A DNA stretch of 64,000 nucleotides from Candidatus Harrisonbacteria bacterium CG10_big_fil_rev_8_21_14_0_10_40_38 (GCA_002773535.1 PFAZ01000002.1:2285-66284), one strand, 5' to 3'; positions 7,668-55,040 are shown, counted from the stretch's first letter. Numbers and translations: made by a program. Notes: a model not told the origin generated them from the sequence alone.

Positions 7668-8462
7668 TTACTTCTTTGATTTTGTAGATTTCTTTTTCGG
7701 AGCCAAAGACTCATCAGAATCCTTCTCTTTTTTACTCGAAGAAGATTTTACAGACGGCTTCGCTTCCTTTACTTCAACTTCACTTAGCTTAATAAAATGA
7801 TCCTGTAAAATTTTTGTTGACTGATGAAGCGCCTGTGAAGGACTAATACTTCCACTTGTCTCAACCGTTATCCTCAAACGATCATAGTCCGTTCTATCGC
7901 CAACACGCATATTTTCAACATGAGTATGAACCTTTATCACCGGAGAAAAAATCGCATCAAGAGCAATAACACCAATAGGCAACTTCTCTGATCTCCTAAC
8001 CTCAGCAGGAACATATCCAAGACCCTGTTCAACGGTTATTTCCATATCAAACTCAGCACCCTTTTCCGTAACTGTCGCAATATGATGATCAGGGGTAATC
8101 ACTTCAACACTAGGATTAACATCTATGTCTGAAGCCAAAACCTCTCCCTCGCCCTTTTTCCTTATAGAAAGAACCTGTGGCTCATTAGTATTTAATCTAA
8201 ATCTAATTCTTTTTAAGTTAAGCATTATCTCAACCATATCTTCAATCACACCAGGAACAGCAGTAAATTCATGACTGGCGCCTTTTAACTTTACCTGCGT
8301 AATAGCAGCACCCGGAAGAGAGGAGAGTAAAACTCTTCTAAGAGCATTACCGACTGTAGCCCCATATCCCGTATAAAGACCCTCAATCTCAAAAACGCCC
8401 TCTTTTTCATTTTCTGAGACCGTTCTTATTGAAACTGTTTCACTAAGTAGATCGTATTGCAT
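7668..8462 (-). CDS. rpoA: DNA-directed RNA polymerase alpha subunit, N-terminal domain only (no alpha-CTD)
   Basis: 264 aa; a recognisable alpha-NTD, then a Lys/Ser-rich tail ...KPSVKSSSSKKEKDSDESLAPKKKSTKSKK in place of the ~80-aa helix-hairpin-helix CTD. Confidence 0.9.
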   Translation of the reverse strand: MQYDLLSETVSIRTVSENEKEGVFEIEGLYTGYGATVGNALRRVLLSSLPGAAITQVKLKGASHEFTAVPGVIEDMVEIMLNLKRIRFRLNTNEPQVLSIRKKGEGEVLASDIDVNPSVEVITPDHHIATVTEKGAEFDMEITVEQGLGYVPAEVRRSEKLPIGVIALDAIFSPVIKVHTHVENMRVGDRTDYDRLRITVETSGSISPSQALHQSTKILQDHFIKLSEVEVKEAKPSVKSSSSKKEKDSDESLAPKKKSTKSKK

Positions 8463-39479: not shown

Positions 39480-40208
39480 CAATAAATTATTATTTACCCA
39501 CCATTACTGATGGTTTGGACTATACCACCACCCCGCACATCGCGGGGGACCGACGTATTAACCGATCTTTAAAGATCGATTCCGTCCCAAATTTATGGAA
39601 CAAGTCTCTAAGGGGTCAATGTACGACGTTTTCGTTTTTTCGAATAATTAAGATCTCTGAAATTATCAACTAACTCTGCCAAGACAAGAAAATCAGATTC
39701 CGTCTTAACTTCATCTTTTTTAGTTAAAATAAGTTTCATAAGCTCAACTTGCTTCTTCTTAAGAAGAACATATGGCTCTATTGCTTCCAAAAGTGTTAAT
39801 ACATCCTGTCTTTTACCGATTATATACTCCAAAATTTCATCTTTTCTTTCTCGTATATATCCCAAACCAACAAGATTGCACACTTTCTCAAAATTTTCCC
39901 GACATTTTGATGATTGAAAAAATACTATGTAAGGCGAAATTTGAAACCCAAATTTATATGATGAATTTGGTTTCATTTGAACATAGATACTTCCATCACC
40001 AACGAGAAAACCAGCAATATATGCCTTTTGATTTGACGAAAAAACCATACACGACTTCCCTCGGTATTATCCTAACATATGACAGGTTAATCAATAAATT
40101 GTTAGGACTTCACCGATATGAGTCAGTTTTTTCCATAGAAAATTGCTTTTCTAGGCCGCCGTGTTCGATTGTCTTTTGCCTTTTTAGGCAAAAAGGGTTC
40201 ATTTTTTG
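39480..40208 (-). mobile_element. Group I intron 2 in the 23S, at the I-CreI / L2593 homing site
   Basis: Exon context ...GGGUUCAAACCGU | intron | CGUGAGACAGGUUGG matches the I-CreI target CAAAACGTC^GTGAGACAGTTTGG; the 5' exon ends in U and the intron ends in G. Confidence 0.8.
39608..40048 (-). CDS. Single-motif LAGLIDADG homing endonuclease (I-CreI-like, encoded in intron 2)
   Basis: 146 aa; AYIAGFLVGDGS motif. Confidence 0.85.
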   Translation of the reverse strand: MVFSSNQKAYIAGFLVGDGSIYVQMKPNSSYKFGFQISPYIVFFQSSKCRENFEKVCNLVGLGYIRERKDEILEYIIGKRQDVLTLLEAIEPYVLLKKKQVELMKLILTKKDEVKTESDFLVLAELVDNFRDLNYSKKRKRRTLTP

Positions 40209-41111
40209 ACGGTTTGAACCCAGCTCGCGTGCCCTTTTAAGTGGCGAACAGCCACACGCTTGGGAGCTTCTCCACCCCCGCGCTAGGGCGAGCCGACATC
40301 GAGGTGCCGAGCTTCGTCGTCGCTGTGGACGCTCGGACGAAACCAGCCTGTTATCCCCGGAGTAACTTTTAGCCGATGTCTTCGGCCTTTCTATAGAGAG
40401 CCGTCGGGTCACTAAGTTCTGCTTTCGCACCTGCTCGACTTGTAGGTCTCGCAGTTAAGCTGGCTTGTGCCTTTACACGTCAAGCGCGATTTCCATCCGC
40501 GCTAAGCCAACCTTAATAAACTCCTCCGCTACCTTTTAGGAGGAAAACGCCCCATTTAAACTGCCCGGCAGGCACTGTCCCTCATGGTTTTTGCCCATGG
40601 GGTTAGACGTTAAAATACAAAAGATGGGTGTTTCATTGGCGACTCCACGTCACCCGAAAGCGACGCTTCAAAGTCTCCCCACTACGCTACGCAAGTGCAT
40701 CCTAAAGCCAATACCAACCTACAGTAAAGCTTCCGGGGTCTTTTCGTCTTGCTGCAGGTACCCCGCGTCTTCACGGGGATCGCATTTTCACCGAGCTCTT
40801 CGCTGAGACAGTTCCCCAGTCGTTACGCCATTCGTGCGCTTCGGAACTTACCCGAAAAGGAATTGCGCTACCTTTGGACGGTTATAGTTACCGCCGACAT
40901 TGACGAGGGCTTCGGGCAGTGGGCAGAACGTATTGCTACATAACACCCCCACCGTTAACCTTCTCGCATCGGTCAGGCGTCACCCCCTATACATAGACTT
41001 ACGTCTTCGCAGGGAGCTGTGTTTTTGATAAACAGTCGCCAGGGATACTTTCGCTGCGGCCTCATCGAAACTGGAAGAAGGAGCGGAACCTCTGTTCCGC
41101 AAAGTTTTTTT

Positions 41112-41190
41112 TGGTAGAGGCGGAAGGACTTGAACCTCCAACCTTCTCGCCTTTAGCGAGACGCTCTAGTCTTTTTTGAGCTACGCCCCT
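41112..41190 (-). ncRNA. tRNA-like element A inside the 23S insertion (anticodon-loop CUAAAGG, encoded CCA)
   Basis: AGGGGCG-TA-GCTC-AAAAAAGACTA-GAGC-G-TCTCG-CTAAAGG-CGAGA-AGGTT-GGAGG-TTCAAGT-CCTTC-CGCCTCT-A-CCA. All four stems pair; the D-loop lacks G18G19; position 34 is A. Confidence 0.5.
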
Positions 41191-41216
41191 ACATAAAAAC
41201 TACAAAATGAAGTAAA

Positions 41217-41291
41217 TGGAGCTGACTGGAGGACTTGAACCTCCACACATGGGGGTTATATCCCAATGCGCTACCATTGAGCTAAGCCAGC
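41217..41291 (-). ncRNA. tRNA-like element B inside the 23S insertion (anticodon-loop AUAUAAC, encoded CCA)
   Basis: GCTGGCT-TA-GCTC-AATGGTA-GCGC-A-TTGGG-ATATAAC-CCCCA-TGTGT-GGAGG-TTCAAGT-CCTCC-AGTCAGC-T-CCA. The T-arm is identical to element A. Confidence 0.5.
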
Positions 41292-42424
41292 TCATTTTTC
41301 CTTCTTCCAGTCCCGATAAGGCAGGCCTTATTGCTAACGTACGGCCGCTTTTTTGCCGAGTTCCTTAGCGAAGAATCACTCGTTCCCCTTGGGCTTCTCG
41401 CCCTATCCACCAGTGTCGGTTTACGGTACGATGCCGAACATACTAACCTTAGAAGCTTTTCTCGGAAGGCTCTTCAGTTTAATTGATTAGGTAAGAACCT
41501 AATCTTTCCTCAATGCGCGAAATTTGCCATTAAAGGCAGACAGCGGGATTTTCCTCACTGCCAAGTCTTAACACAAAGGACGCCAAACCATTAAGACGAT
41601 AAACCTTTTGTCCTCCGTCCCTCCATCGAATATGTCCGGCGGGCAGGAATATTAACCTGCTTCCCATCGCGTTCAGCTTTCGCCATCCGCTTAGGATCGC
41701 CTAACCCGTGGATGATTGCCATTGCCACGGAAACCTTGGATTTTCGGGGTGCCCGTTTCTCACGGACAGTGTGGTTACTCATACCAACATTCTCACCTCC
41801 CAGCGTTCCAGTTGCCCTCGCGGGTCAACCTTCAACACACTAGGAGCGCTCTCCTACCGCTCATGAATTCCACCAAAGAGACATAAATCTCCTCAGTGGA
41901 ATTCACGAACCCGCACCTTCGGTGGCGTGCTTAAGCCCCGATACATTTTCGGCGCCACCAACCGTCGAATAGTGAGTTGTTACACACTCTTTAAAGGGTG
42001 GCTACCTCTAAGCCAACCTCCTATCTGTCACTGGTTGATGACTACCTTTAACACTGAGCACGCACTTAGGGACCTTAGATAGCGGTCTGGGCTGTTCCCC
42101 TCGCGAACATGGAGCTTAGCCCCCACGTTCTAACTACTATTCATCCGTTATGGTATTCGGAGTTTGATCGAACAGTCGAGCTTGCGCCCATTACTGCTCA
42201 TCCAGTGCTCTACCCCCATATCGTTTTTAAATAGCGCTAGCCCTAAAGCTATTTCGGAGAGAACCAGCTATTACCAGGCTCGATTAGCTTTTCACTTCTT
42301 ACCCCAGATCATCCGAGGGTGTTGCACAACCCACCGGTTCGGACCTCCCCCCACTGTTACGTGGGGTTCATCCTGTCCAGGGCAAGCTCGCACTGGCTTC
42401 GGGTCTTACACATGCTGCTTACTA

Positions 42425-42477
42425 CCTATGACTTACGACGTACGGCAAATAAATTGCGCGTAAATCGTAAGTCAAAG
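42425..42477 (-). other. Extended hairpin at the 23S helix-25 position (IVS-like expansion)
   Basis: A 10-bp inverted repeat TGACTTACGA / TCGTAAGTCA enclosing ~28 nt, at the equivalent of E. coli ~nt 545, a known IVS hotspot. Confidence 0.35.
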
Positions 42478-42669
42478 TAGGAATCGCCCTTTTAAGACTC
42501 GCTTTCGCTACGCCTTCTCCCGCTAAGCGGGATTAAACATTGCAACATATATAAACTCGTTGGTTCATTCTTCAATAGGCACCGCGTTACCCGATCCCGC
42601 ATTGCTGCGGGACCCGAGCTTCGCGTCTTTGTAAGCGTATGGTTTCAGATTCTATTTCATCCCCCTTCC

Positions 42670-42712
<43 letters not shown>

Positions 42713-43354
42713 ATCACGAAATGTATTTAGCCTTACCGGATAGTACCGGCAGATTCCTTCAAGGTTGTTTTGCCTCGAAGTACTCAAGAACGAAGAAATT
42801 GGTCGCTACAGCTTTCGCGTACAGGGCTGTCACCTTCTCTGGCCTCGCATTCCAACGAGTTCCACTAGCTGAGCAATTTGTAACCAATCATAGCGACAAG
42901 CGACATAAGACAAACAACAAGAAAATACTTGTCGCAGTTCACATGTCGCATATCGCTAAATTTTCCTCGCCTTACAACCCCCATCAATCTTTCGATAAAT
43001 AGGTTTGGGCTCTTCCCGTTTGGCTCGCCGCTACTCAGGGAATAAACGTTTGTTCTCTTTTCCTCTGCTTACTGAGATGTTTCACTTCAGCAGGTGTACC
43101 TTCTACATTGCTGTAGAATCATGTCGGTTTACGACACGGGGTTTCCCCATTCGGAAATCTTCGGATCAAAGGTCGCTAAGCACCTCCCCGAAGCTTATCG
43201 CAGCCACGCCACGTCCTTCATCGCCATTTCGTGTCAAGGCATCCACCATACGCCCTTACGAGATCAATAACCACATTGTTCTTCATAACGGGAAACGTAT
43301 AAATGCTTTTTTGTACCTGTTACTAATTTGATTCAGATATTCATTTTTAAAAGC

Positions 43355-44328: not shown

Positions 44329-44436
44329 TTATTTGTAAACAAATCTAAATTTTGAACTCGACCTTGCAATACATAAGTAGAGAGCATTTACTAATAAGTA
44401 TAGCAACTTACATATAGCTCGTGTGGATAACTAAAC

Positions 44437-44640
44437 ATGAAAGACAAAATAGAAAACCAAGTTTTAGATTTCCGAAACAAAAAAGGGATAACCCAAGAAG
44501 AACTCGCTGAAGCAGTCGGGGTAACAAGGCAAACTATAATAGCTATAGAAAAAGGAAATTACTCCCCTTCAATATTACTCGCCCTTAAAATTGCAAAATT
44601 TTTTAATGAACCAGTCGAAAAAATTTTTTATCTAGAATAA
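44437..44640 (+). CDS. XRE-family helix-turn-helix transcriptional regulator (small Cro/CI-type)
   Basis: 67 aa; ...GITQEELAEAVGVTRQTIIAIEKG... Confidence 0.8.
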   Translation: MKDKIENQVLDFRNKKGITQEELAEAVGVTRQTIIAIEKGNYSPSILLALKIAKFFNEPVEKIFYLE

Positions 44641-52193: not shown

Positions 52194-52682
52194 ATGGATT
52201 TTAAATTCACAAAATCGTACAATTTATTTCATACAAATAATATGGAAATAGAAAAAGAGATAATTATGACAACTGAAGAAAATTCCTATAAGAGCATGCT
52301 ATCGGCAAAAAATAAACGCGAAATCATTGTATACACCATTGTTGGTTTTGGTGGCGCTATATTAGACTTTTTAATTTTCTATTCACTTATATACGCCAAA
52401 ACTCCGATAATTATCGCCCAATGGTTCGGCGCAAGCGCCGGATTTATTCACAACCATCTTTGGCACCATTATAAAGTATTCACTCATTCAAAAAAGTTTG
52501 GGTTTACCACTACGACATCAGGAACAGCCGCTGTCATTGGAGTTATTTTATCTGGCCCAATGCTCGCCGCACTCGAAAGCATTATCCCAAACCTATTTAT
52601 TAATAAAATAATAATTGTTGGGATAATAACTATCCTACTCTTTATTATAAGAAAAAAATGGATATTTACCTCTTCGAAGTAG
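52194..52682 (+). CDS. GtrA-family membrane protein (polysaccharide synthesis/translocation accessory)
   Basis: 4 TM; ...YTIVGFGGAILDFLIFYSL... The real start is probably the internal Met at 52266. Confidence 0.65.
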   Translation: MDFKFTKSYNLFHTNNMEIEKEIIMTTEENSYKSMLSAKNKREIIVYTIVGFGGAILDFLIFYSLIYAKTPIIIAQWFGASAGFIHNHLWHHYKVFTHSKKFGFTTTTSGTAAVIGVILSGPMLAALESIIPNLFINKIIIVGIITILLFIIRKKWIFTSSK

Positions 52683-53430
52683 AAGAATAAACGCCACGCA
52701 AATTATTTATTCTAATTTTTATAAGGTCACGCATTATCGCAAAAGCCGTTGAAAAAAATTTCAATTTTGTATCCTTATCATTTCGCCAAATAACAGGAAT
52801 CTGTTTTACGCTGTAGCCTAATTTTTTCGCAAGATACAAAACCTCTACATCAAAACTCCAACCATATATAGTAGTTCTGCTAAAAATATTTCTTGCCGCC
52901 TCACGAGAAAACATCTTAAAACCGCATTGTGTATCAGATATTCCTCTAAAAACAAGCATCTGAACAACAAAATTAAAAAACTTACCAGCATACTCCCTAT
53001 ACAAAGGCTGTCTGACTTCTATTTCGCTTCCGCTAATCGCCCTTGAACCTATCACAATATCCGCAGGTAAAACGTCATAAAATTTTTTAAACTCTTCAAT
53101 TGGGGTCGAGTTGTCTGCATCCGTCATAAGAACATAATCATTCTTCGCCATAAGCATACCCCTCCTCACCGCATAACCCTTTCCCCTGTTTGGCTCGCCG
53201 GTCGCAATTATTATGTGAGCGTCACCAATATTTTTTACGACATCCACTGTATCGTCTTTTGAACCGTCATCTACAACAATAATTTCATATTCAAGATTGA
53301 GACCGGAAAGAAAACCGATAGCAACACGAAGAGTCGGCTCAATTCTTTTAGCCTCATTATACGCAGGAACAACAATTGAAATCGAAAATCGAGCGCTTTG
53401 CATATCACAGAGTAGAATACTACGAAACAT
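52666..53430 (-). CDS. Family 2 glycosyltransferase (polyprenyl-phosphate sugar transferase, GtrB/DPM1-like)
   Basis: ...IVVPAYNEAKRIEPTL...IIVVDDGSKDDT...DADNS... Confidence 0.85.
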   Translation of the reverse strand: MFRSILLCDMQSARFSISIVVPAYNEAKRIEPTLRVAIGFLSGLNLEYEIIVVDDGSKDDTVDVVKNIGDAHIIIATGEPNRGKGYAVRRGMLMAKNDYVLMTDADNSTPIEEFKKFYDVLPADIVIGSRAISGSEIEVRQPLYREYAGKFFNFVVQMLVFRGISDTQCGFKMFSREAARNIFSRTTIYGWSFDVEVLYLAKKLGYSVKQIPVIWRNDKDTKLKFFSTAFAIMRDLIKIRINNLRGVYSSTSKR

Positions 53431-53555
53431 ATCTTTTTCTCAACTGAATTAATAAAAAAATATTTTCAAAGTTATTCACAGATAAACGAAAAAAAATATC
53501 GTCTAACATATTTTATTGTTGTATAGTAAGAAAGCGAACAGAAGATCGCGAACAA

Positions 53556-53670
53556 AAATTTTTTTGAAAAAATTTTTTTTGAAAACTCAGTAGCAGAAAA
53601 CGCACAGCCAAAATTTTTTTAAAAATTTTTTTTGCACAAAGGTCGGCACACAGAATTTTTTTAAAATAAA
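53556..53670 (+). repeat. Array of alternating A5-8 / T7-8 tracts upstream of the basic-protein gene
   Basis: gaacA5T7gA6T8g...gccA4T7A5T8g...agA2T7A4...; at least four A-tract/T-tract palindromic units within ~115 nt. Confidence 0.6.
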
Positions 53671-53856
53671 ATGAAGAAAAGAAAAAAAGCAGCGGCAAAG
53701 AAAACAACTAAAAAGAGGACAGTAAAGCGCAGAGTCGCAAAGAAAACAACTAAGAAGAAAACAACGAAACGCCGAACAGCGAAAAAGACCACGAAACGTA
53801 AACCAGCAAAGAAAACAACGAAACGCCGAACAACAAAGCGCCGAAAGAAAAAATAG
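53671..53856 (+). CDS. Small, highly basic Lys/Arg/Thr-repeat protein (histone H1-like / Hc-like candidate nucleoid protein)
   Basis: 61 aa: MKKRKKAAAKKTTKKRTVKRRVAKKTTKKKTTKRRTAKKTTKRKPAKKTTKRRTTKRRKKK; about seven copies of the KKTTK(R/K)R unit. Confidence 0.55.
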   Translation: MKKRKKAAAKKTTKKRTVKRRVAKKTTKKKTTKRRTAKKTTKRKPAKKTTKRRTTKRRKKK

Positions 53857-53872
53857 ATTTTAAAACAAAAAG

Positions 53873-53903
53873 AAAACCCTTACGACAAGGGTTTTCTTTT
53901 TTT
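53873..53903 (+). terminator. Bidirectional intrinsic terminator
   Basis: AAAACCCT-TACGACA-AGGGTTTT followed by CTTTTTTT; there is an A-run on the other side for the convergent Nudix gene. Confidence 0.6.
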
Positions 53904-54350
53904 CATAAGTGAAATAATTTCCTCTACCAAGTAAGAAAGTGATCTAGGAAGATTATCTAAATCAAACCACCTCGCTTCGCGAATCTCAATAGGATCAATA
54001 ATAAAATTATTATTCTCAACTTTAGAATAAAAACAATAAATCATATCACGCTTATACTCCCTCCTATTTTCCAAAAATCCAATCTCCTCAATATTATTTA
54101 ATTTTATTCCAACTTCTTCAAAACACTCTCGCTCTGCAGCATCTTTAAACGACTCATCATTTTTTACGCCACCACCGGGAAAAGTCCACATACCACGACC
54201 ATAATTATTTCTAATAAACAAATACTTGCCATCATTCTCGATAACACATTTAACACCTCGGGTTTTTGGACGAAAAACAAACCAATATACCCTCACAAAA
54301 GGTAAAATTAGCTTGAAAAAATTTCTAACAAATAATCTCTTAGCTTTCAT
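53880..54350 (-). CDS. NUDIX hydrolase
   Basis: Nudix box GGGVKNDESFKDAAERECFEEVGI. Confidence 0.85.
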   Translation of the reverse strand: MKAKRLFVRNFFKLILPFVRVYWFVFRPKTRGVKCVIENDGKYLFIRNNYGRGMWTFPGGGVKNDESFKDAAERECFEEVGIKLNNIEEIGFLENRREYKRDMIYCFYSKVENNNFIIDPIEIREARWFDLDNLPRSLSYLVEEIISLMKKRKPLS

Positions 54351-54855
54351 TATTTTCTATAGACATTTTGACTTGTTTTAAAATTCCGTACTCCCTCCAA
54401 ATAAGCCAAAGAATAAATATATCAACAAAAATTATAAAAACTAAAAAAAGGGAATGCGTGTGAATGACCCTAAATATCTCATAAAGCGTAAAAAATCCCA
54501 CGAACACAAATGCAGCAGGATACGCCCAAAGTTTATATCGCAAAATATTTACTGAAAGAAAAACATCAGCTGCGCCCCACACCAAAAGATAATAAGCAAT
54601 AAAAGCAACCGAATTTAAAGGTACGTGAGAAAACAAAAGCCCAAGTGAACGGATAAAAAGATCATTTGGGTCTTCAATAAGTTCTCCTCTGGAAATAACC
54701 TTAAATAATGACGGCAGGTCAGAAGAAGCAACCATAAGAAGAGCGACACCAGCAGAAAATTTTAACGAACCATAAAAAACCCGCCACCACATTCCAATAC
54801 GAAAGAAAAGCGAAAATGTTCTCGTTTCTGCTTGCATATTAATACATGCAAGCAT
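54340..54855 (-). CDS. Hypothetical integral membrane protein
   Basis: Multi-TM. The track ORF (to 54966) overlaps tRNA-Ala, so the start is placed at an internal Met (MLACINMQ...). Confidence 0.45.
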   Translation of the reverse strand: MLACINMQAETRTFSLFFRIGMWWRVFYGSLKFSAGVALLMVASSDLPSLFKVISRGELIEDPNDLFIRSLGLLFSHVPLNSVAFIAYYLLVWGAADVFLSVNILRYKLWAYPAAFVFVGFFTLYEIFRVIHTHSLFLVFIIFVDIFILWLIWREYGILKQVKMSIENNES

Positions 54856-54893
54856 ACACAAGAAACACAAAAAATCATATAAAAATATCTCCG

Positions 54894-54964
54894 TGGACCT
54901 AGGCAGAATCGAACTGCCGTCTCGACAATGCGAATGTCGCGTCTTACCACTAGACGATAGGCCC
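54894..54964 (-). tRNA. tRNA-Ala (anticodon CGC)
   Basis: Hand-folded. Acceptor GGGCCTA/TAGGTCC with the G3:U70 Ala identity pair and A73; D-stem GTCT/AGAC; anticodon stem CGACA/TGTCG; loop UUCGCAU; T-arm GGCAG-TTCGATT-CTGCC. No encoded CCA. Confidence 0.8.
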
Positions 54965-55040
54965 AAAATTAACTAGCCAGAACTTTTATTGTAATACCCC
55001 TGTCCGCCTACGCTTTTCTGGAGCGTATCGGAACTTTACT

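Follow-up and report, generated by a model that had tools for sequence, protein, structure and literature searches.

A 61-amino-acid (aa) polycation is encoded at 53671-53856 on the plus strand of a 64,000-nucleotide stretch of DNA (hereafter, the window) from Candidatus Harrisonbacteria bacterium CG10_big_fil_rev_8_21_14_0_10_40_38, a groundwater member of the Candidate Phyla Radiation (CPR/Patescibacteria). Judged by its synonymous substitution pattern against a homolog, by its gene-like architecture, and by relatives that carry Shine-Dalgarno (SD) sequences, this open reading frame (ORF) is a genuine gene, and purifying selection acts on it. Our favored reading, which we hold with moderate confidence, is that the product is an electrostatic binder of nucleic acids, most likely a nucleoid protein, and that the array of A and T tracts upstream of the gene is an AT-only promoter or leader region.

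A polybasic gene under purifying selection

The ORF begins with an ATG at 53671, its sole in-frame start, and ends with TAG; the frame extends no further upstream than a stop codon at 53662. The product, MKKRKKAAAKKTTKKRTVKRRVAKKTTKKKTTKRRTAKKTTKRKPAKKTTKRRTTKRRKKK, contains 26 Lys, 11 Arg, 14 Thr, 6 Ala, 2 Val, and 1 Pro, and no acidic residue. Lys and Arg make up 61% of the protein and Thr 23%, giving about 37 positive and 0 negative side chains. An ORF scan showed it to be the single plus-strand ORF between a family 2 glycosyltransferase (GT2) gene and a NUDIX hydrolase gene. It is present in the Joint Genome Institute (JGI) gene calls on the four contigs shown, the locus is 100% identical across four independently assembled contigs, and a gene-position index holds the window polycation on six contigs.

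Searches based on hidden Markov models (HMMs) failed on the biased composition of the protein, so relatives were sought with a degenerate DNA pattern (two KKTTK units) over metagenome contigs, and the matches were translated. Stand-alone ORFs of 29 to 57 aa and of like make-up were found on seven contigs (L090, L108, L117, L121, L124, L153, and L193), and 624 kb of unrelated loci contained virtually no comparable ORFs. The closest relative was a 46-aa ORF, MATKKKSTRKVATKRKTTVKKTTKRKTTKRKPAAKKTTKRRATKRR, on the unrelated metagenome contig L108. BLASTP aligned the C-terminal 18 residues with 16 identities (E = 0.001 for this one comparison). Of the 44 codons that align, 13 were identical, 22 differed only synonymously, and nine differed non-synonymously, with nucleotide differences of 10/5/26 by codon position. 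Because the nearly T-free sense strand leaves the antisense frames open, one of which shares the wobble position, all six frames were scored. The annotated frame had 22 synonymous and nine non-synonymous differences, compared with 15 and 14 for the wobble-sharing antisense frame, and the remaining four frames had at most three synonymous and at least 27 non-synonymous differences. Relative to a homolog, the annotated frame thus has the synonymous excess that marks purifying selection. For the relatives on L117 and L124, the neighboring leucyl-tRNA synthetase and PrfA proteins led to exact sequences or 90% clusters named Candidatus Moranbacteria (NCBI), with one L117 label reading Bacteroidales. 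From these assignments, genes of this type appear to be present in at least two CPR lineages.

We considered whether the ORF might be spurious, that is, low-complexity, purine-rich repeat DNA that is open by chance, with any function belonging to the repeat itself, as DNA or RNA, or to antisense ORFs. Such an origin would fit the uniformly empty HMM-based searches, the open antisense frames opposite a sense strand with only six T, the lack of an SD before the ATG, and Arg codons that are CGC or CGA in 64% of cases, which is atypical for the genome. It is nevertheless highly improbable: the substitution pattern prefers the annotated frame over the five others, six relatives have a GGAGG-like SD 6 to 10 nucleotides (nt) before the equivalent ATG (some also have terminators), and the ORF opens with an ATG and has a terminator right behind its stop codon. 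The missing SD is normal here, because a loose SD precedes only six of the 53 genes in the window, and the RNA of the 5' region is no better folded than its shuffles (z = +0.77), with no Rfam match. A preliminary description of this DNA had called the ORF coding for a Lys/Arg/Thr/Ala polypeptide, and this holds. The antisense ORF that it placed at 53513-53707 is mechanically open but is missing from the JGI gene calls.

The gene is monocistronic. It shares with the convergent NUDIX gene (53880-54350, minus strand, assigned by Pfam) a bidirectional intrinsic terminator hairpin at 53867-53901, GAAAACCCTT-ACGAC-AAGGGTTTTC followed by T7, which starts 11 nt after the polycation stop codon. The stem is 15 to 16 bp long, with folding free energies of -17.3 (plus) and -18.3 (minus) kcal/mol and z scores of -4.7 and -4.6; no shuffle was as good. 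The A run and T run at its flanks provide U-runs on both strands, so that a stable G+C-containing hairpin with a U-run is found in either direction. The 3' end of the NUDIX gene (its last codons and the stop at 53880-53882) lies inside the hairpin. Although a simple terminator scanner did not list this hairpin, the strong bidirectional terminator described earlier, at 53873-53903, was confirmed by fold energy on both strands.

Repeat structure and codon use

Tandem Repeats Finder reported an intragenic 27-nt (nine-codon) tandem repeat at 53755-53838 on the plus strand (3.1 copies, 71% matches). The corresponding protein unit is the 9-mer AKKTTKR(R/K)(T/P). Five exact KKTTK[KR][KR] cores and two degenerate ones (RTVKRRV and RTTKRRK) can be counted, so that the "about seven copies" of KKTTK(R/K)R mentioned earlier were a generous but fair estimate, with a repeat period of nine residues. 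The units have diverged mainly synonymously: U3 and U4 differ by five synonymous and two non-synonymous codons, and Arg is encoded by AGG in U1 and by CGA in U4.

The sense strand at 53671-53853 contains six T, compared with 13.3 +/- 2.6 expected from the codon usage of the genome (P about 0.002). This near-absence of T at synonymous sites results in a nearly U-free, unstructured mRNA and leaves all antisense frames open. CGC and CGA make up 64% of the Arg codons in the gene and at most 16% elsewhere in the window. Codon adaptation was judged uninformative as a proxy for expression, because CGC-CGA pairs were spread by the DNA repeat. Alternation of AAG and AAA to avoid long poly-A runs was not significant either, as 12% of synonymous recodings equaled it. 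A 15-nt inverted match (14 of 15 identical) connects 53671-53685 (plus) with 53892-53906 (minus), and M-K-K-R-K is the in-frame translation of each copy, one opening the polycation and the other lying close to the NUDIX C-terminus. No polybasic tail or ending of this kind was found in NUDIX homologs, and we regard the match as probably a by-product of the A and T runs of the terminator.

An array of A and T tracts upstream of the gene

The 240-bp divergent intergenic region between the GT2 gene and the polycation gene (53431-53670, delimited by ORF map and Pfam) contains, at 53554-53666, three blocks of alternating A and T tracts. Unit 1 (53554-53580; A5T7-G-A6T8) forms a 30-bp near-palindrome. 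Unit 2 (53610-53633; A4T7A5T8), which is homologous to unit 1 in repeat analysis, consists of 24 bp of pure A/T followed by TTGCAC. Unit 3 (53654-53670, with A2T7A4 at 53654-53666) runs into TAAAAT, and the segment 53639-53669 resembles 53542-53572. The units are tandem copies that have diverged, and a spacer containing G/C and ending in GCACAG or GCACACAG comes after each, which suggests that the array grew by local tandem duplication.

The array, as the preliminary description had noted, is real and goes far beyond chance. It holds four of the five AAAATTTTTTT matches of the window, where 1.55 would be expected in total, and five of the 30 runs of at least seven T; by content of A/T runs, the 150 bp upstream of the ATG belong to the highest 0.2% of the window. 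Five of the six AAAWWTWTTTTNNNAAA matches of the window fall within 53554-53585, whereas 0.32 would be expected in the whole window. We take AAAWWTWTTTTNNNAAA to be the core of the Escherichia coli UP-element consensus, which is reportedly due to Estrem et al. (1998). By this consensus, unit 1 matches a UP element in sequence, with the core on both strands. UP elements have been described as alternating A and T tracts (PMC12641261).

The accompanying claim that the tracts are phased and intrinsically curved was not sustained. Curvature was calculated as a wedge-model trajectory, in degrees per 30 bp, with parameters attributed to Bolshoy et al. 1991. Control sequences gave 82 degrees for phased A6, 62 for (A4T4CG)n, and 5 for (T4A4CG)n, reproducing the known curved and straight cases. 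The array scored about 10 degrees per 30 bp, compared with a mean of 19 over the window (6th to 21st percentile), and its tracts are spaced 11 to 15 bp apart instead of the roughly 10.5 bp (10 to 11 bp) of the helix phase that characterizes phased A-tract DNA. Curved DNA was rejected on both grounds, and the array is predicted by the model to be straight.

The best sigma-70-like promoter found by consensus matching is TTCACA-16-TATCGT at 53475-53502 on the plus strand. If it is used, the whole array would lie within a 5' untranslated region of about 160 nt. A DnaA-box-like 9-mer with one mismatch (53472-53480, plus) overlaps its -35-like TTCACA. A TATAAT-like box 5 to 12 nt before the ATG is common among the 53 gene starts of the window, and together with the scarcity of SDs this suggests leaderless or near-leaderless mRNAs. 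Other roles were set aside. A structured RNA in the array or leader was rejected, as the fold (z = +0.77) was no better than shuffles and every Rfam match was below its gathering score. A replication origin (oriC) or DNA-unwinding element was rejected because GC skew is monotonic across the window and there is no cluster of DnaA boxes. A second pair of A/T tracts, at 44595-44629, was irrelevant, lying within the coding sequence of an XRE-type helix-turn-helix (HTH) gene.

Is the array linked to the gene?

One possibility raised by this arrangement is that the array serves the polycation as a favored site for high-affinity binding or nucleation, and that the polycation would then autoregulate its own promoter. 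The minor grooves of long A/T tracts, narrow and electronegative, attract Lys and Arg. Within the 64 kb the array is one of a kind; it directly adjoins the gene, and its three units are spaced at 56 and 44 bp, close to whole numbers of helical turns. Repeated A/T-tract palindromes also occur upstream of two relatives: the gene on L124 is preceded by three copies of a ~24-nt T6-8-C-A5-8 element, and the gene on L108 by a perfect A/T-cored palindrome of 40 bp together with two copies of CACAAAAATATTTTT. The T6+N?A4+ motif (a T-run/A-run junction) lies upstream of the gene in four of seven occurrences in the window and four of eight on L124. We nonetheless consider autoregulation unlikely, since the array is predicted to be uncurved, a peptide with no fold is not expected to discriminate sharply between AT-rich sites when the genome has a GC content of about 39%, and A/T-run content upstream of the relatives reaches only the top 2% to 9% of each locus, as intergenic DNA commonly does, with motifs that are unlike one another. 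By comparison among loci, the link between array and gene is suggestive only.

A single perfect DnaA box (TTATCCACA) is found upstream of the polybasic gene on each of L124 (4044-4052, minus) and L108 (685-693, minus), the one on L124 being 10 bp upstream of a TTGCAA-16-TATAAT site. No DnaA-box cluster was found at the window, L108, or L124 loci, and none of them is therefore an origin. The sole perfect DnaA box of the window, at 44422-44430 (minus), is 7 nt upstream of the ATG of the 67-aa XRE-type HTH gene (44437-44640).

Probable function of the polycation

KKTTKK-type repeats also occur as N- or C-terminal tails of larger proteins, whose identities were read by eye from translations of metagenome contigs. 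Tailed proteins include the ribosomal proteins L21 (contig L152) and L24 (L192), the ribosomal silencing factor RsfS (L103), trigger factor (L100 and L178), and NusA (L191), and further examples on L176, L170, and L099 are DksA/TraR-like zinc-finger, sigma-like, and topoisomerase-like proteins. Because these repeats are appended to nucleic-acid-handling proteins, we infer that they behave as a portable nucleic-acid-binding module. This fits the earlier suggestion of a nucleoid- or ribosome-associated polycation, which remains plausible.

In the mechanism that we favor, the stand-alone protein would act as a sequence-unspecific electrostatic binder that neutralizes the charge of nucleic acid. 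Its likeliest target would be chromosomal DNA, in the manner of the C-terminal tail of histone H1, Hc2/BpH1, and protamines, which would make it a small nucleoid compaction protein. It is probably intrinsically disordered, or helical only when bound. The array, for its part, would be a straight, easily melted, AT-only segment with a narrow minor groove, forming the promoter or leader part of a divergent gene pair and resembling a UP element in sequence. Nucleic-acid binding, a DNA rather than an RNA target, and a promoter role for the array are all inferred from sequence and context.

A ribosome- or RNA-associated polycation would instead fill pockets in CPR rRNA, as a tiny ribosomal protein or RNA chaperone specific to the lineage, and would bear comparison with bS22, bL37, or Thx. 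CPR ribosomes are without some universal proteins, and L21, L24, RsfS, trigger factor, and NusA are among the proteins that carry KKTTKK repeats. AAG accounts for 42% of Lys codons in the polycation gene, close to the 41% of the ribosomal-protein set of the window and unlike the 28% of bulk genes, and Hc2 itself binds RNA strongly (PMC2848022). No ribosomal-protein model in Pfam or NCBIfam matched the polycation, however, and its locus lies outside any ribosomal operon, between glycosyltransferase and NUDIX genes. Moreover, length (29 to 61 aa) and repeat number vary widely among the relatives, which is unusual for an integrated ribosomal protein. We regard a ribosomal or RNA role as a minority possibility, though one of considerable weight.

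Binding to another polyanion, such as polyphosphate granules, has a precedent in AlgP (PMC9239181), and purely charge-driven binding is compatible with polyphosphate. It is very unlikely here, as no polyphosphate kinase or related gene was seen next to the locus and KKTTKK repeats are otherwise found on nucleic-acid-handling proteins.

Several observations count against the favored reading, a DNA-binding nucleoid protein whose gene is preceded by a promoter or leader array. Homology searches with the polycation returned nothing usable in Pfam, NCBIfam, PHROGs, or Protein Data Bank sequences, and neither a word-indexed search of 5.8 billion proteins (E <= 1e-3 and E <= 10) nor an exhaustive phmmer search of 1.84 billion gave a usable match; empty HMM searches are to be expected with a composition this biased, and composition-bias correction removes all matches. 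The sequence does not separate a DNA target from an RNA or ribosome target. A single-sequence AlphaFold model (helix at residues 6-42, predicted local distance difference test score of 82) was considered untrustworthy for an isolated polycation and was not used. On the promoter side, no convincing, properly spaced -35/-10 pair was found downstream of the array in the intergenic region, and the sole good -10-like hexamer, TAAAAT (53662-53667), ends 3 nt before the ATG. The usual reader of UP elements is also missing: RpoA (7668-8462, minus strand, 264 aa) has only the PF01000 and PF01193 domains, with no Pfam match to the alpha C-terminal domain (CTD; PF03118) even at E <= 1, which bears out the earlier remark that this domain is absent. 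Finally, an extreme A/T array is no conserved hallmark of the homologous loci, and motifs differ between them. RpoA ends in a K/S-rich tail, KPSVKSSSSKKEKDSDESLAPKKKSTKSKK, which could possibly replace the CTD in contacts with A/T-rich upstream DNA.

On a bolder view, KKTTK polycations of 30 to 60 residues would be a widespread CPR/Patescibacteria chromatin class unseen by databases, a protamine-like counter-ion that packs the DNA of ultra-small cells and whose expression is tied to operator arrays of A/T tracts and, in certain lineages, also to a DnaA box. We think this quite unlikely; if true, it would be a bacterial analog of replication-coupled histone supply.

The mechanism proposed for the polycation is generic. 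Its interest lies in its bearing on how CPR bacteria organize their DNA; these are ultra-small, uncultivated cells with reduced genomes, here with a truncated RNA polymerase alpha subunit and almost no SD sites. The polycation offers a specific candidate for a nucleoid or ribosome counter-ion that can be tested at low cost, since the peptide can be synthesized. It also points to a tiny polybasic class that is effectively invisible to standard resources and was recovered here only by the degenerate DNA pattern scan. The polycation and the six relatives that were looked up (L108, L117, L124, L121, L153, and L090) do not occur in a clustering that covers 15 billion proteins; because of this absence, and because HMMER-based searches do not see them, such proteins appear to be systematically under-counted.

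Neighboring genes and other features of the window

The GT2 gene (52666-53430, minus strand) is the divergent neighbor of the polycation gene. Synteny could not be used: NUDIX homologs were at most 53% identical and had unrelated neighborhoods, and a GT2 scan of genome contigs found nothing closer than 47%, so they provided no orthologous locus for comparison. On viral contigs, 476 pattern matches were obtained, none of which was confirmed by tblastn.

Three independent assemblies (L002, L003, and L004) start within 20 bp of one another just upstream of the array (53447-53467), and two of them end at 54593. The shared ends may mark a strain-variable boundary beside a block containing the GT2, GtrA, and 1271-aa surface protein genes, or may alternatively reflect a drop in coverage in AT-rich DNA. 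A mechanically predicted 208-aa DUF2127 ORF (54340-54966, minus) has a TTG start that overlaps tRNA-Ala(cgc) (54893-54964, minus). JGI calls the product as 171 aa, which probably places the true start downstream of the tRNA.

The 23S rRNA gene of the window (40139-43269) has a canonical TTGACA-16-TATACT in its promoter region and no adjoining 16S gene. Within it, at 41112-41291 (minus), ARAGORN and Rfam call 'tRNA-Phe(aaa)' and 'tRNA-Tyr(ata)', which have the look of an rRNA insertion, not of genuine tRNA genes.

Comparison with known systems

The polycation had no Pfam match to HC2 (PF07382), Hc1 (PF07432), or linker histone H1 (PF00538) at E <= 10. The HC2 profile gave 0 bits for the window protein, about 10 for the L108 and L121 relatives, and 26 for the distant P0040, compared with a gathering score of 40 bits. 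The N-terminal or globular domain of Hc1 and H1 is missing, since the whole polycation is repeat sequence. Ribosomal-protein models in Pfam and NCBIfam (bL34, bL36, bS21, bS22, bL37, and others) likewise gave no match.

Among very small basic proteins, bS22, bL37, and Thx are 25 to 60 aa long, extremely basic, and easily missed by annotation; the polycation differs from them in being repetitive, of variable length, and without an NCBIfam or Pfam match. Protamines are very small, about 60% basic, and Arg-dominated, and they compact DNA by charge neutralization. Unlike these and other protamine-like sperm proteins, the polycation is bacterial and Lys-dominated (26 Lys and 11 Arg), lacks Cys, and has no detectable homology to them. 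H1 tails have roughly 40% basic residues, compared with about 61% in the polycation.

At the level of DNA, the upstream array resembles an E. coli-type UP element in the way its A tracts alternate with T tracts and in its five exact core matches at 53554-53585. It departs from one in a host RpoA without an alpha-CTD, in the absence of a well-spaced -35/-10 pair downstream of the array, and in a tract period of 11 to 15 bp versus about 10.

The closest likeness among bacterial proteins is in composition. Like Hc2 (HctB) of Chlamydia and BpH1 of Bordetella, the polycation is built of short Lys/Arg-rich tandem repeats in which Ala, Thr, Val, and Pro fill the remaining positions, duplication and deletion in the DNA make the repeats vary, and electrostatic binding of DNA and RNA is expected (PMC2848022). 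The Lys-rich repeat proteins of these bacteria bind both DNA and RNA (PMC2848022). Hc2, however, consists of consecutive pentamers with two basic residues each, arranged in 36-aa elements (PMC2848022), whereas the period here is 27 nt, or 9 aa, with five to six basic residues per unit. The polycation is also much shorter (61 aa versus 165 to 237 aa), Thr-rich instead of Ala-rich, and without an HMM match or non-repetitive flanking domains. With two basic residues in five, Hc2 is much less charged, and the polycation nears the charge density of protamines. The resemblance to Hc2, BpH1, and the H1 C-terminal tail proposed in the preliminary description therefore extends to composition and not to profile matches or repeat geometry.

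A similar relationship holds for the H1 C-terminal domain and for HupB/Ku, DdbA, and AlgP, which share a disordered, Lys-rich, charge-neutralizing module, stand-alone or as a tail (PMC3553676, PMC3643593, PMC9239181). The H1-like domain of DdbA (PMC3643593) and the PAKKA tails of mycobacterial Ku and HupB (PMC3553676) are DNA-binding analogs, AlgP, a Lys-rich H1-like repeat protein, localizes to polyphosphate granules and spaces them (PMC9239181), and in Streptomyces H1-like domains are fused to DksA (PMC3643593). In contrast to these tails, the polycation has no globular winged-helix domain, and its motif is KKTTKRR and not (S/T)PKK or PAKKA. By analogy, the polycation would be a functional analog of the H1-tail, Hc2, and protamine kind and not a member of any of these families. 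Within the bacterial H1-like Lys-rich repeat proteins it stands out for its small size, high charge, Thr richness, and stand-alone nature, and its host is a CPR bacterium.

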